Origin: Candidatus Norongarragalinales archaeon
GTDB lineage: Archaea > Micrarchaeota > Micrarchaeia > Norongarragalinales > DASYRB01
Reading direction: 5' to 3'
Assembly: GCA_036004805.1 (NCBI GenBank)
Contig: DASYRB010000026.1
Span: 4,938-68,937, forward strand
Length of the DNA stretch: 64,000 nt
The position numbers were made by a program, and so were the translations under genes. The notes under the pieces are model-generated. The model had not been told where the DNA came from and did no database searches. It saw only the letters and a list, made by a program, of their open reading frames with translations. Each line of letters opens with the position of its first letter. Position 1 is the first letter of the stretch. Shown in pieces: positions 47,203 to 53,775 of the stretch.

Positions 47203-47832
47203 TTAGAAGTATTTCAAGTTTGTCTCTACGAGCTTCGCGAACGTTCTCGCTTGAGGCGTGGGGTCGCTGGCTACCTTGGCTCTGCCAGCGTCGGGATTAG
47301 CAGCGACGGGCGCGTAGATCTTGATGGCGAGGAAGGGTTCGCGCGACATGATGATGTATGGCAGTTGTGTGTGGATGGTGAACTTGAGGAAGTTAAGCCA
47401 GAGCCTTTCGCTCTTGCTGAGCTGGCTTTCAAGCGTGAAAAGTTCCAATTGTCTCTCGGCGAGGACGCGGTTGACCTTCGCCCTGCCTTTTTCTGGCGCG
47501 TAATTGAGGTCGAGCGATAGGTCGGGTTGCGTCGTGAGCGCGTAATCGAAACTGTAGAAGAGAACGAGGATGAGTAGTTTGAGTAGAATGATCGGAATGG
47601 CGGCGATTACGACGACCTCGATTGCTAAAATCGCGGCGTTCTCGACGACCGGCTGTTCCAGGTATAGAGCGACGAAGGCGGCCGCGGCGCCGACGAGGAA
47701 GAGCGCGATCACGAACAGGCGGTTCGAGAGGGCATTCATGAGTCCGAGGAAGCGTTTGAGATACTCTGCTGAAGCCATGGTGGGTTGAACCAGTTTCGAG
47801 GACTGAACTTTAAAATGCCTCTCTCGCCACAA
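47203..47832 (-). CDS. Hypothetical membrane protein (2 TM). Probable start at MASAEYLKRF.
   Basis: Hydrophobic LFVIALFLVGAAAAFVALYL and AAILAIEVVVIAAIPIILLKLLILVLFY. Confidence 0.45.
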   Translation of the reverse strand: MWRERHFKVQSSKLVQPTMASAEYLKRFLGLMNALSNRLFVIALFLVGAAAAFVALYLEQPVVENAAILAIEVVVIAAIPIILLKLLILVLFYSFDYALTTQPDLSLDLNYAPEKGRAKVNRVLAERQLELFTLESQLSKSERLWLNFLKFTIHTQLPYIIMSREPFLAIKIYAPVAANPDAGRAKVASDPTPQARTFAKLVETNLKYF

Positions 47833-47842
47833 TTATAGTGAT

Positions 47843-47952
47843 AGCCCCGTCGTCTAGAATGCAGTATCGAGAATTTTTGATGCTGTGTGGACTATGGACA
47901 AGGACGCCAGGCTTTGAACCTGAAAACGGCAGTTCGAATCTGCCCGGGGCTA
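47843..47952 (+). tRNA. tRNA-Gln (anticodon UUG) candidate with a roughly 35-nt non-canonical intron in the D-loop.
   Basis: Acceptor stem AGCCCCG (47843-49) / CGGGGCU (47945-51), discriminator A. These are the same acceptor-stem and discriminator bases as Methanocaldococcus tRNA-Gln, as I recall it. T-arm GGCAG-UUCGAAU-CUGCC (47928-44). Anticodon arm CCAGG-CUUUGAA-CCUGA (47907-23), U33/A37 flanking UUG. D-stem GUCU (47852-55) / GGAC (47902-05) encloses 46 nt instead of 8-11. An internal 7-bp hairpin cagtatc/gatgctg is a possible intron helix. Not run through tRNAscan. Confidence 0.55.
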
Positions 47953-49027: not shown

Positions 49028-50499
49028 TATTGCCTCGCTATGTAAACAGTCTGCTTAGCAGGCTTGCCACAAACAACACACTTCGCGTTTGATGAGGGTT
49101 TTTCGTTCATTCCAAAACGCGTTCCTCTGACTTTGCCGCCTTTCGTGAAGGTTTGCAGCTCTTCAGCACATTTTGCTCCATCATCGTCGGTTGAGTGGAA
49201 TGGCGCTCGAGCGACTCCCTTCTTTTCTAGAATTTTCAACACTTCTTGTTTCGTGTCGGCATCTTCGATGCGTTTCGAAAGGTCATTTTGCGTTTTTTCC
49301 TTCATCGAGTCAAGCATTTCCGCGGAGAGCTTTGTGAGTGCGCCGACGATTTGCGCCTGTGGAATGGTAAGGCGAGTTCCCGTGTCTCTGCGGGCGAGCG
49401 TGACGTTGTTTTCCTTGACTTCCTTCGCGCCAATCTCGACGCGCGCGGGCGTGCCGATCAACTCCCATTTGGAATACTTGTATCCTGGCGTCTTGTCGCT
49501 GTCGTCGAGCGCAGCACGGAAACCAGCGCGCTTCAATACCGCGAACAGGCTTTTGGCTGTGTCAAGAATTTTCGCGTTCTCCGGCGCTCCTGTCTTCATG
49601 ATCGGCACGATCACGACTTGAGTCGGCGCGATGCTCATGGGCCACAAGAGTCCCTTGTTGTCGCCGTGCACGCCGATGAGCGCGCCCATCATTCGCCAAG
49701 TGCCCGGACCGTAACACGTTTGCCATGCGAACTGGTCCTTTCCGTTTTCGTCTTGGAACTTGACGCCGAACGCTTTCGCGAATCGTTGTCCAAGCATGTG
49801 TGTCGTGGCGATTTGCAGCGCTTTGCCATCGGGAAGGATTACGTCTGCGCCGTAAGTGTCATCCGCTCCTGGAAACTTGTCCCACTGCGGCCTCTTGATT
49901 GCAAGAAGGGCAAGACCGAGCTGGTCTGTGAGGACTTTGTGTGTGATGGCCATGTCTTCCTCGATTTGTCGCGCAGCGTGATCTTTTGAATCAAAAACGT
50001 CGTGTGCTTCGATCCAACTGAATTCACGGCCGCGTAGGAACGGATTGGTTTCGCTTTCGTTGCGGTAAACGTTGCATGACTGGTAGAGCTTCAGGGGCAG
50101 TTGTGATTTGCTCTGTATCCATAGCGAGTACATCTGGTACATTGCCGTTTCGCTGGTTGGTCGCAGTGCTAAGCGTCGAGCGAGTTTTTCGTTGCCGGCG
50201 TGCGTGACCCAGAACACTTCCAGCTTGAAGCCTTGTGCGTGTTCTTTTTCTTTCTCAAAGTTTTCTTCTGGAATTACGACTGGAAACATTACTGGTGAGT
50301 GTCCTTTGTCTTCGAGTTCGCGTTCGATCATTTCCGTGACTTTGCGTAACGGGATGGCGGCGTTGGGTTTGTGGACGATGAAGCCTTGCACGTTGTAGCG
50401 GTTGTCGACGAGGTCGGCGGCGTAGAGGATGGTGTTGTACCATTCGCTGTAGTCCTTGTTTTTGTCTTTGTCGAACTCGCGTGAAGCCATCATTGCCAT
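49024..50499 (-). CDS. proS: Prolyl-tRNA synthetase, archaeal/eukaryotic type (class II).
   Basis: 491 aa. Class II motifs (FRGREFSWIEAHD). C-terminal zinc-binding CVVCGKPAKQTVYIARQY typical of archaeal-type ProRS. Confidence 0.9.
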   Translation of the reverse strand: MAMMASREFDKDKNKDYSEWYNTILYAADLVDNRYNVQGFIVHKPNAAIPLRKVTEMIERELEDKGHSPVMFPVVIPEENFEKEKEHAQGFKLEVFWVTHAGNEKLARRLALRPTSETAMYQMYSLWIQSKSQLPLKLYQSCNVYRNESETNPFLRGREFSWIEAHDVFDSKDHAARQIEEDMAITHKVLTDQLGLALLAIKRPQWDKFPGADDTYGADVILPDGKALQIATTHMLGQRFAKAFGVKFQDENGKDQFAWQTCYGPGTWRMMGALIGVHGDNKGLLWPMSIAPTQVVIVPIMKTGAPENAKILDTAKSLFAVLKRAGFRAALDDSDKTPGYKYSKWELIGTPARVEIGAKEVKENNVTLARRDTGTRLTIPQAQIVGALTKLSAEMLDSMKEKTQNDLSKRIEDADTKQEVLKILEKKGVARAPFHSTDDDGAKCAEELQTFTKGGKVRGTRFGMNEKPSSNAKCVVCGKPAKQTVYIARQY

Positions 50500-50556: not shown

Positions 50557-53500
50557 TTAGGCTGTGTCTTTCTCGTTTTTGCGTTTGCGTTTCTTTTTGC
50601 CCGGGAACAATGCGAGGATGAGTGCGTATCCTAGCGCGATAATTATAGTGATGATGAAAAGTGTTATTGTGAGCTCGCCGGCTGCGAGTTGCGTTTCTCC
50701 CGGCACGCATATTTCTTGTTCCTTGATGAGCGTGCGTTGCAGTCCTTTCCTCTCGAAGAATTTCGCGTTGTAGCATCCTGGCTTGAGGAGTTTGAGAGTG
50801 GCGCGGTACGTTTCGCCGCCGCCGAACACGTTCGCGTAGACGAGGGCGTTTTGTTTGTATATTTCGAACTCTCCCGAAGCCGCGGGGTCGAGTATCGTTA
50901 TCGTGAAGGTGACTTCGTCGCCTGGCTTGAGTTTTTCGGGTGCGTCGATGCAAACGAAGCTCGTTCCAGGCGCTGGGCTGATCGTGCGTGTGGATACGAG
51001 TGGCGAGCCTTCGAATGGTCCGTCGACGTGCGTGAGGATGCGCAGTGTAGTGTATGGGTCGATGGGCTTGATGAAGAACGTGACTGTGACTCGTTGTCCG
51101 GGTGGTATGGGTTGCACGGGTAGTGTTTGGCTGTTCATGGTGACGGTGATTCCTGTGAGGTATTCGTCGCCCGTGTTTTCCAGGAGTACGGGTATTGCGA
51201 AAGAGTCGCACGTGGTGAACGTGTTGGGCGCGAGCACTAGCATTGATAGGTGTGGTCCGGCGATCACGCTCGGCGGTTGTGGTGTGGTGGTCGGCGAGGG
51301 TTGTGGCGTTGGTGCGGGTTGTTTCTGCACTATCACGACCTGCACTTCTTCAGGCATGACTGTTGGCGTGGGTGTGGGGTATGGTGTGGGCGTGTATTGC
51401 GTGCCTGGTGGTCCTCCTCCTGGTTGTGGTTGTGCGGCTTGTCCGAGTGCCCAGCTTGAGAAGTTTGTAACCATGAATGTGTATTCTGGCGGGTTGAGGT
51501 TTGAGTAGGAAGGCGTGTAGATTGTTCCTGTGCTTAACACCAGCGCGCGGGACGTGGTGAATGTTGATAGCGTGTATACGTTGCCTGCAGTGAATGAAAG
51601 TGAGTAGAAGGTGATGTTGGTGGCGGTGTTGAAGAGCTCGTTCATGCTTGCATCAAGTGCAGCAATCCAAGCTCCTTGGAACAGGTTGGTAGAGTTGAGG
51701 AAGTTGTTGCTTGCGTTGTTGAGGTTTATGCTTGCGAATTGTACGGAGCCGTTTCCGGAGACGTAGTTTGTAAAGTTGGTCAGGTTTGAGTTGAGCACGT
51801 TGGTCGTGTTCATCACTGCGAGAGAGTCGATGATTTTCGTGTTCGAGATTGAAGCGTTTTTGATGGTTTTGAGGAATATGGCGATGTTCGTGGCGTTTCT
51901 GATCGTGTTGTTTTCGAGTGTTGTGCGGTTAGAGTTTTGTATGTTGATCGCGATGGTCGCGTTGGTGATGGTGTTGTTCGAGAAAGTGAAGTCTTGTTGC
52001 GTGTCTGTCCACAAGCCGCTGGCGCAGTTGTTCAGGTTGTTGTCGTGTATTTTTACTCGCGACATGGCTGGTCCGCTAGCAACTTCATTGCCTATGGAGA
52101 AGCAGTCGGTAAAGTTGGATAGTGTTATGTTGTTGTTGGCGACTTCTAGGTCTTGAAGAGTTACGGAATAGGCAAAAATGCCTATGCCCCAGGGCGAATA
52201 ACTGTTGCCGTAGTTGTTGTTGGGCCACTTGAATGGCAGTACGGTGTTGTTCGATATTGTCAAGTTTGTTAGAGTGCCGCTGCCCAAGTCTAGGAACTCG
52301 ATTCCGTACGTGCCGTACTCTGCAATGTTGTTTTGCACGGTGACGTTGCTCGCACTGTGCTCTAGTTGTATTGCGCCGCCAAGCCGGTCGTAACCAGTGT
52401 CGTTGATGTAGTTCGAAGTTACGTTCACGAGAGAGCTGCGCGTGACGAAGATGCCGTTACTCCAGCTATTGCGTATGGTGTTGTTATTGGCGGTCACGTT
52501 TTGGGTGCCGCGGACCTCGATGTTTGCAGTGTTTCCGGTAGTAGAGTTGAACATTGTCGAGTGCGCAATGACGGAGTTGTTCGTGCTGCTTAGATAGACT
52601 CTTCCTGAAGAGCTGAAGTTCGAGTTGTAAACATAGAGCCAGTTTGATTGCGTGGCGTTGATCGCCATGCTTGAAGAGTTGACAATACTTGCGCCAGTGA
52701 TTACGGTGTTGTTTGAGAGATAGACTTGTATCCCTTGATACGTGCCAGTAATGTTTGCATTGTTTACTGTTGTATAGTTCGATGAGTAGATGTAAATTCC
52801 ATAGTTAGTTTGGTTGCCGTTGCCGCGCACCATGTTGTTCGTGACTGTAGTGCCTATTGCGGTTTCGATGTCGATGCCCCAGTTGTCAGTCGAGCCAAAC
52901 GTAGTGATGTTGTTGTTCGTGGCGGTGTTGTTGTTTCCTGGAGTTCCAAAAATGGATATTCCGATGTTGAATACGGTCGTGCCGCGCGCAGTGATGTTGT
53001 TGTTGTTGACAGTGTTGTTGTTGCCCGTTACGAGCAGTCCGTAGTTGTTGTCCGTGCCGTTAGTGATTATTTGGTTTCCAGTTATCGTGTTGTTTGACGT
53101 GGAGGTTTTGAGTTCGATGCCTGTGTTGAAGTTGCCAGTTGCTCGAGAAATCGTGATGTTGTTTTGTGTGACTGTGTTGTTGTTGGAGTTGTCTTCGATT
53201 TTTACGCCGTCGTTGAGATTTACGCCATTGGTGGTGATGTTGTTTCCAATTATTGTGTTGTTGGAGTTGCGTGAGAAGAGAAAGATGCCGAAGTTGTTGT
53301 CGCCAGTTCCAGTGGCGATGATGGTGTTGTTTTCGATGCGATTTCTGCAAGAACCCCCGCTCAGAATTATTCCGTATGAGTCTGTCGAACCATTTGTGCG
53401 AATCGTGTTGTTGTAGATGTAAGAGTCGTTGGCATTGCTGAAGTTGATGCTGTTCGTAAACGCAAAGCTCGTAGAGTTTTTCGTGAATAGACAGTTCTTG

Positions 53501-53775
53501 ACTGTGATGTTGTTGAAGCCGGTGTTTCCTACTCCGAACTTGTTTGCTGCGCCGTATCCGTAAGTAATGTTCCAGCCTGCGCAGTCGATGACTATGTTGT
53601 TGGCATTTATCGTGAGACAGGTGCCACTGCTAACGATTGAAGTGTTGAGGAGGTACGTTTCGCTTGTAGAATTGAGCGTAGTGCAGTCTGTGACGTTTGT
53701 GTAAGCGTTCGCGTTGCTAGTGAGAAAGAGCAGGCCAGCTACTAGTATGATTGGGAATAGCGCGCTTCGTTTCAT
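50557..53775 (-). CDS. Giant secreted parallel-beta-helix surface glycoprotein (1072 aa) with PT linker, C-terminal Ig-like region, TM anchor and poly-basic tail.
   Basis: Signal peptide MKRSALFPIILVAGLLFLTSNANA. Dozens of beta-helix rungs rich in N-x-T (NNNTVTQNNITISRATGNFNTGIEL...). Linker YTPTPYPTPTPTV...PAPTPQPSPTTTPQPP. C-terminal LTITLFIITIIIALGYALILALFPGKKKRKRKN. Confidence 0.8.
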   Translation of the reverse strand: MKRSALFPIILVAGLLFLTSNANAYTNVTDCTTLNSTSETYLLNTSIVSSGTCLTINANNIVIDCAGWNITYGYGAANKFGVGNTGFNNITVKNCLFTKNSTSFAFTNSINFSNANDSYIYNNTIRTNGSTDSYGIILSGGSCRNRIENNTIIATGTGDNNFGIFLFSRNSNNTIIGNNITTNGVNLNDGVKIEDNSNNNTVTQNNITISRATGNFNTGIELKTSTSNNTITGNQIITNGTDNNYGLLVTGNNNTVNNNNITARGTTVFNIGISIFGTPGNNNTATNNNITTFGSTDNWGIDIETAIGTTVTNNMVRGNGNQTNYGIYIYSSNYTTVNNANITGTYQGIQVYLSNNTVITGASIVNSSSMAINATQSNWLYVYNSNFSSSGRVYLSSTNNSVIAHSTMFNSTTGNTANIEVRGTQNVTANNNTIRNSWSNGIFVTRSSLVNVTSNYINDTGYDRLGGAIQLEHSASNVTVQNNIAEYGTYGIEFLDLGSGTLTNLTISNNTVLPFKWPNNNYGNSYSPWGIGIFAYSVTLQDLEVANNNITLSNFTDCFSIGNEVASGPAMSRVKIHDNNLNNCASGLWTDTQQDFTFSNNTITNATIAINIQNSNRTTLENNTIRNATNIAIFLKTIKNASISNTKIIDSLAVMNTTNVLNSNLTNFTNYVSGNGSVQFASINLNNASNNFLNSTNLFQGAWIAALDASMNELFNTATNITFYSLSFTAGNVYTLSTFTTSRALVLSTGTIYTPSYSNLNPPEYTFMVTNFSSWALGQAAQPQPGGGPPGTQYTPTPYPTPTPTVMPEEVQVVIVQKQPAPTPQPSPTTTPQPPSVIAGPHLSMLVLAPNTFTTCDSFAIPVLLENTGDEYLTGITVTMNSQTLPVQPIPPGQRVTVTFFIKPIDPYTTLRILTHVDGPFEGSPLVSTRTISPAPGTSFVCIDAPEKLKPGDEVTFTITILDPAASGEFEIYKQNALVYANVFGGGETYRATLKLLKPGCYNAKFFERKGLQRTLIKEQEICVPGETQLAAGELTITLFIITIIIALGYALILALFPGKKKRKRKNEKDTA

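Follow-up and report, generated by a model that had tools for sequence, protein, structure and literature searches.

In Aeropyrum pernix, pre-tRNA-Thr carries a bulge-helix-bulge (BHB) intron in its D-loop that is removed in vivo and cut by the endonuclease EndA in vitro, and EndA without its specificity loop cuts this intron poorly (PMC3241643). The pre-tRNA-Glu(UUC) of Methanopyrus kandleri has an intron at position 20b/21 (PMC5829648). In the Thermoproteales, BHB introns occur at seemingly arbitrary tRNA positions, with up to three per gene (PMC4090602, PMC8450103). A review gives positions 20/21, 22/23, 25/26, 29/30, 30/31, 45/46, 53/54, 56/57, 59/60 and 3/4, and 15/16 is not named in this list, which ends with 'etc.' (PMC4090602). 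In Candidatus Micrarchaeum acidiphilum ARMAN-2, 56% of the tRNA genes are disrupted and many of the introns are non-canonical (PMC3239211), and the epsilon2 EndA of this organism has a broad specificity, cutting strict as well as relaxed BHB motifs (PMC3239211, PMC3488258). The BHB models of tRNAscan-SE 2.0 were trained on introns of Crenarchaeota/Euryarchaeota and of Thaumarchaeota (PMC8450103).

Here we analyzed a tRNA locus within a stretch of 64,000 nucleotides (the window) of a contig from JGI metagenome 3300036860 (Ga0376048_0000093), assigned to a Candidatus Norongarragalinales MAG (Micrarchaeota, DPANN). The ProRS encoded on this contig is 100% identical to a protein of the 'Candidatus Norongarragalinales archaeon' MAG, and its next relatives, at about 58%, are from Micrarchaeota. 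A preliminary description of the DNA had proposed a tRNA-Gln(UUG) whose D-loop is interrupted by a BHB intron and had pointed to lineages in which non-canonical introns occur; the host, a DPANN archaeon, belongs to such a lineage. Our analysis indicates that positions 47843-47952 are very probably a functional Micrarchaeota tRNA-Gln(UUG) gene interrupted by a 37-nt intron of the protein-spliced type (47858-47894), predicted to be spliced out between tRNA positions 15 and 16.

Gene anatomy and the bulge-helix-bulge motif

The gene and the elements predicted in and around it are the following.

47810-47817, + strand: TATA-box-like element TTTAAAAT, putative archaeal pre-tRNA promoter, about 26-33 nt upstream of the mature 5' end
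47843-47952, + strand: complete pre-tRNA-Gln(UUG) gene, 110 nt, no encoded CCA (sequence, fold and a scan for acceptor plus T arm)
47843-47857, + strand: 5' exon, tRNA positions 1-15, AGCCCCGUCGUCUAG (matches intron-less homologues)
47852-47855, + strand: exon strand of the central 4-bp BHB helix, G10-U13, which is the mature D-stem 5' strand (pairs with 47889-47892)
47856-47858, + strand: 5' bulge, A14 G15 / A, predicted cut between 47857 and 47858 (BHB geometry)
47858-47894, + strand: predicted BHB intron, 37 nt, between tRNA positions 15 and 16 (strict 3-4-3 BHB, p=15/q=52)
47859-47888, + strand: inner helix h', a 13-bp intron hairpin, 47859-47871 with 47876-47888, loop AAUU at 47872-47875
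47889-47892, + strand: intron strand of the central BHB helix, GGAC (BHB scan and homologues)
47893-47895, + strand: 3' bulge, U A / U16, predicted cut between 47894 and 47895 (BHB geometry)
47895-47952, + strand: 3' exon, tRNA positions 16-73, UGGACAAGGACG...CGGGGCUA
47914-47916, + strand: anticodon UUG, positions 34-36 (sequence and ARAGORN)

The gene reads AGCCCCG-UC-GUCU-(46 nt)-GGAC-G-CCAGG-CUUUGAA-CCUGA-AAAC-GGCAG-UUCGAAU-CUGCC-CGGGGCU-A (47843-47952, + strand). The acceptor stem is formed by AGCCCCG (47843-47849) and CGGGGCU (47945-47951), with seven of seven Watson-Crick pairs, A1-U72 as the first pair and A (47952) as the discriminator base; A1-U72 and an A73 discriminator are identity features of archaeal tRNA-Gln. 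The T arm, GGCAG-UUCGAAU-CUGCC (47928-47944), has all five stem pairs, and the 7-nt anticodon loop, CUUUGAA (47912-47918), contains U33. Four pairs of the anticodon stem are good and the fifth, 27:43, is a C·A mismatch, so the earlier statement that the arms were fully canonical applies to the acceptor and the T arm and not to the anticodon stem. Of 53 distinct intron-less homologues, 5 likewise lack pairing at 27:43, and the mismatch thus lies within the variation of the family. The conserved positions checked in the spliced form (U8, A14, G18, G19, A21, G53-C61, T loop, U33 and A73) are all intact, and the fold z-score is -3.9. A custom scan of the 64-kb window for the combination of acceptor and T arm returned a single locus, 47843-47952. 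The exons are in order and contiguous within 110 nt, so the locus is neither a split nor a permuted tRNA gene.

The D stem, GUCU (47852-47855) with GGAC (47902-47905), encloses 47856-47901; the 46 nt given for this region in the preliminary description are exact, and the region is about 37 nt longer than a normal D-loop. The locus was scanned for BHB motifs over all junction pairs, each strand being composed of outer helix, 4-bp helix, 3-nt bulge and outer helix, and cleavage was placed after the second bulge nucleotide, which is where archaeal EndA cuts. Two neighbouring registers stood out. The first (X, intron 47858-47894) removes 37 nt at 15/16, with an inner helix h' of 13 bp, an outer helix h of 2 bp, an energy of -39.1 kcal/mol and a 73-nt product. 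The second (Y, intron 47859-47893) removes 35 nt at 16/17; its central helix is shifted by one, h' has 12 bp and h has 3 bp, the evaluated energy is -36.9 kcal/mol and the product is 75 nt long. Another register (p=15, q=59), with an intron of 44 nt, was discarded since it would leave a D-loop of 2 nt.

In the 15/16 register the motif is a strict hBHBh', with two 3-nt bulges on opposite strands and between them a 4-bp helix of the pairs G-C, U-A, C-G and U·G. Both flanking helices have at least 2 bp: h' reaches 13 bp with G·U pairs counted, and h is at the minimum of 2 bp and weak, consisting of the exon-exon pairs U8·G and C9-G. An internal hairpin of 7 bp had been described previously; its core, CAGUAUC/GAUGCUG, is present, and the full hairpin extends to 13 bp with G·U pairs. 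The intron bounds suggested at that time, about 47862-47895, were close to the best-supported 47858-47894, differing by 4 nt at one end and 1 nt at the other. When the insert was shuffled 200,000 times, the central helix together with an inner helix of at least 3 bp appeared at the right junctions in 0.33% of the shuffles, and the longest inner helix among them had 9 bp, compared with the 13 bp observed; a chance origin of the motif is therefore improbable.

In the unconstrained minimum free energy (MFE) fold, at -43.1 kcal/mol compared with -39.1 for the BHB, GUCUA is paired instead with the UGGAC copy of the D-loop. A stretch of 17 nt contains three copies of GGAC, one in the intron (47889-47892), one in the D-loop (47896-47899) and one in the D-stem 3' strand (47902-47905), and each of them can pair with the exon GUCU, giving three competing folds. 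The absence of the BHB from the MFE prediction is explained by this competition. Folding of 47843-47952 in search of a BHB-like motif had been put forward as a check on the intron, and it yields the strict motif, albeit with another pairing preferred in the unconstrained fold.

The more stable competing fold, the weak 2-bp outer helix and the C·A at 27:43 would also be expected of a decaying copy, that is, a tRNA-Gln gene disrupted by an insertion and no longer, or only inefficiently, spliced. We consider this very improbable: the checked positions from U8 to A73 have all been retained, the acceptor is perfect, a promoter-like box is present, the BHB is strict with the longest inner helix among the 35 same-site precursors described below, and the 27:43 mismatch is shared with 5 of the 53 intact homologues.

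Some archaeal tRNA-Trp introns encode a C/D box sRNA, with the boxes RUGAUGA and CUGA and an intron of about 50 nt or more. The 37-nt intron of the tRNA-Gln gene contains only UUGAUGC and no CUGA, so that no C/D box sRNA was recognized in it. An Rfam scan of the locus found nothing besides tRNA, and no second copy of the intron sequence is present elsewhere in the 64-kb window.

The TATA-like box TTTAAAAT is, to judge by its sequence, a putative promoter of the pre-tRNA. Most of the 35 same-site precursors are preceded by a similar A/T box, at about -26 to -36. The genes around the tRNA locus encode common archaeal housekeeping proteins (S17e, NUDIX, ProRS, Hsp20, PCMT and M48 protease). Two other features of the neighbourhood were recorded. 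The minus strand at 50557-53775 carries an ORF of 1072 aa, extremely rich in Asn, Thr and Ser and with many N-x-T/S motifs, which has Beta_helix and faint NosD Pfam matches, a Pro/Thr-rich linker and a C-terminal hydrophobic segment; its product is probably a large, heavily glycosylated surface protein. On the plus strand, 49500-49639 gave a sub-threshold Rfam match to the eukaryotic IRES_Bip (25.7 bits, gathering threshold 40), within the coding region of ProRS on the opposite strand, which is almost certainly due to chance.

Predicted spliced product and calls by tRNA finders

Splicing in silico in the 15/16 register produced a full-length 73-nt tRNA-Gln(UUG) that ARAGORN calls end to end, in support of the D-loop BHB intron proposed originally. 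Its D-loop, AGUGGACAA, is also found in intron-less homologues, and its near-minimum-energy fold is essentially the cloverleaf. The product is identical at 67 of 73 positions to L061, an intron-less gene of Ca. Iainarchaeum sp., and nhmmer gave E = 4.7e-22 for the spliced form. Two independent Logan assemblies (L002 and L003) break off within the tRNA and so give no confirmation of the intron.

All 87 intron-less homologues are 73 nt long with a 9-nt D-loop of the form AG[UCA]GG[UCA]CAA, and several read AGCCCCGUCGUCUAG-UGGACAAGGAY. The 5' exon is identical to the first 15 nt of many of them (for example L040, L061 and L072). A1-U72 and A73 are common to the 87, the retrieval pattern itself having required ...CGGGGCTA, and the acceptor and discriminator match about 100 archaeal tRNA-Gln(UUG) genes. 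In the homologue family the cloverleaf is paired in 99% of cells, with strong covariation. Three DPANN tRNA-Gln(UUG) genes (L009, L059 and L087) have the 5' acceptor strand AGUCCCG or AGCCCUG instead of AGCCCCG, which opposite CGGGGCU gives G·U pairs in the acceptor stem.

A family profile was built from 53 distinct intron-less homologues, and on it the product of the 15/16 register scored 65.6 bits, that of the 16/17 register 58.2 and the unspliced precursor 47.7. The same gene and mechanism with an intron at 47859-47893 (35 nt, 16/17), leaving a 75-nt tRNA with the 11-nt D-loop AGAAUGGACAA, is an improbable alternative on these grounds. This register too forms a strict 3-4-3 BHB, with one more pair in h (3 bp, h' 12 bp), its 75-nt product is accepted by ARAGORN, and 11-nt D-loops do occur in a few homologues (L057 and the predicted product of L006). 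Its score is lower by the figures above and its energy is worse (-36.9 versus -39.1), and the 87 intron-less 73-mers as well as 17 genes with a single insert fit splicing at 15/16 with a central helix of G10-U13. The predicted exon junction is GUCUAG-UGGACAAGGAC (47857 joined to 47895) for 15/16 splicing and GUCUAGAAUGGAC for 16/17 splicing, and the mature junctions expected are CUAG-UGGAC and CUAGAAUGGAC, respectively.

The unspliced gene was misplaced by every finder applied to it, as had been anticipated. ARAGORN called 47881-47952 only, and its intron options (-i and -i0,60) gave the same call, since ARAGORN handles introns of the anticodon loop only. The Rfam tRNA model also placed the gene at 47881-47952, with 35.4 bits, so that the locus passes the gathering threshold of 29 in the wrong position. 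A custom covariance model made from the 53 intron-less homologues (R1) gave 53.2 bits to 47881-47952; it could not place the intron because this contiguous alignment was preferred to opening a 37-nt insert. The 5' acceptor strand of the 47881-47952 reading is drawn from within the insert. In that reading the acceptor has two non-pairs, and more non-standard pairs are found in the D and anticodon stems.

The agreement of ARAGORN, Rfam and R1 would be explained if they were right and 47881-47952 were an intron-less tRNA-Gln, with the upstream AGCCCCGUCGUCUAG a chance match or a leftover fragment. We give this almost no credence. Besides the two non-pairs in the acceptor and the further irregular pairs in the D and anticodon stems, intron-less orthologues score higher in Rfam (55-61 bits), the upstream 15-mer is the exact 5' exon of the family and pairs 7/7 with the 3' acceptor strand, and the TATA-like box is spaced for a start near 47843 and not 47881. 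The same tools also misplace or miss other intron-bearing homologues: Rfam did so with those tested, its scores for intron-less ones being the 55-61 bits just given. An Rfam scan at relaxed threshold and the acceptor-plus-T-arm scan revealed no other hidden tRNA in the window.

Viral contigs were scanned with the T-arm/acceptor 21-mer of the window tRNA. The single match, L146 (1-110, minus strand, contig IMGVR_UViG_3300035696_000233), ends in a tRNA-Arg(CCU)-like 3' fragment with an encoded CCA. It was rejected as a relative, being an unrelated tRNA-Arg(CCU)-like 3' fragment in which ARAGORN finds no full tRNA, and looks like the remnant of an attachment site.

Recurrence of the 15/16 insertion site

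Metagenomes were scanned for the 5' exon followed by a gap of 14-44 nt and YGGNCAAGGA, which returned 39 loci. A genome scan found eight other DPANN tRNA-Gln(UUG) genes with inserts in the D region, of which L050 (Micrarchaeota) has its insert at the same site as the window gene and L006 (Aenigmatarchaeota) at about the same site. An insert at the same site is thus present in 34 further distinct tRNA-Gln genes, 33 metagenomic and one (L050) from a Micrarchaeota genome. Together with the window gene these make up 35 distinct precursors with the insert directly after G15.

In 34 of the 35 precursors, all four intron nucleotides from -6 to -3 are paired with exon G10-U13, and five different intron tetranucleotides (GGAC, AGAC, GGAU, GGGC and AGGC) serve this central helix, indicating that structure has been kept over sequence in related genes. 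In controls with the partner slid by 1-4 nt, 4/4 pairing was found in 0-1 of 35. The 3' bulge is mostly AA/Y (the slash marks the cut); the UA/U of the window gene is also found in L132, and L131 has UA/C. The inner helix of the window gene is the longest of the 35. In 17 genes the 15/16 insert is the only one, and its removal leaves exactly 73 nt.

The metagenomic genes that have an insert at 15/16 include both UUG and CUG anticodons. Additional inserts, one or two per gene, are carried by L108, L110, L112, L115, L121, L122, L125-L127 and L130, and also by L132, L133, L140, L143 and L145. The extra inserts are located after the anticodon (37/38-like), near 25/26 and inside the T loop after GTTCGAA, and multi-insert metagenomic precursors reach about 190-300 nt with up to three inserts per gene. 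A second recurrent D-region site of DPANN tRNA-Gln(UUG) genes lies at about 21/22, where inserts of 51-60 nt follow ...GGCCAA in L034, L042, L065 and L084 (Micrarchaeota), L062 (Woesearchaeota) and L060; a strict BHB restores a 73-nt product in L034, L065 and L084.

It is possible, although we hold it only tentatively, that 15/16 of tRNA-Gln is a conserved intron site throughout the DPANN lineage, shared by the UUG and CUG isoacceptors and with introns ending in (G/A)G(A/G)(C/U)-AA. The site could go back to one ancient insertion or be the target of a mobile intron homing there. None of the papers covered names 15/16 among the non-canonical intron positions, the search not extending to Sugahara et al. 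2008, SPLITSdb and GtRNAdb. The recurrence and conservation of this site in DPANN tRNA-Gln genes is the mildly novel part of the present results.

Predicted splicing and comparison with known systems

In the BHB of the precursor, the future D-stem 5' strand (G10-U13) pairs with the GGAC near the 3' end of the intron to form the central helix. Established knowledge of archaeal tRNA splicing suggests that EndA would then cut in both bulges and that an RtcB-type ligase would join the exons, held together by the acceptor stem. After splicing, the D stem would re-pair with its true 3' strand, GGAC at 47902-47905. Since no CCA is encoded, CCA would be added to the spliced tRNA, and the 73-nt tRNA would enter the archaeal Glu-tRNA-Gln / GatDE pathway. 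As the intron pairs with the D-stem 5' strand, formation of the BHB and of the D arm are mutually exclusive in the precursor, and because this strand is sequestered the L-shaped core would be blocked until the intron is removed. No EndA-like gene was detected in the 64-kb window by tblastn with an approximate M. jannaschii EndA query and by a regular expression for the catalytic motif, together a weak test.

We recommend that the locus be annotated as a tRNA-Gln(UUG) gene of 110 nt that contains an intron and has its exons at 47843-47857 and 47895-47952; the gene of 72 nt that ARAGORN and Rfam report, defective in its acceptor, is wrong. Such misplacement matters when the completeness of the tRNA set of DPANN genomes is judged: general tRNA finders overlook such genes or put them in the wrong place, and a tRNA-Gln that seems to be lacking from a DPANN genome could owe its absence to the annotation. 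The 35 same-site genes, many of them with one or two further introns, could serve as training material for BHB models of DPANN introns and as a basis for deciding between inheritance and mobility of the introns.

The tRNA-Gln precursor resembles Aeropyrum pernix pre-tRNA-Thr2(UGU) and the M. kandleri precursor in having a short D-loop BHB intron whose helices use nucleotides of the D arm. It differs from both in the isoacceptor (Gln), in the position (15/16) and in its origin from a DPANN Micrarchaeota member in an apparently mesophilic metagenome. Moreover, the motif in the window is a strict hBHBh', whereas that of M. kandleri is a relaxed HBh'. The genes with the 15/16 insert are similar to the multi-intron genes of the Thermoproteales in carrying up to three inserts. 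ARMAN-2 and the host of the window belong to the same phylum-level lineage; the intron sites described for ARMAN-2 are 37/38, 53/54 and 59/60, with no mention of 15/16 in tRNA-Gln (PMC3239211). BHB introns of the D-loop are on record, as are intron-rich tRNAs of Micrarchaeota, so the intron represents nothing new in kind: it is of the usual archaeal BHB type and occupies a non-canonical position, and introns of this sort were known from its lineage before.
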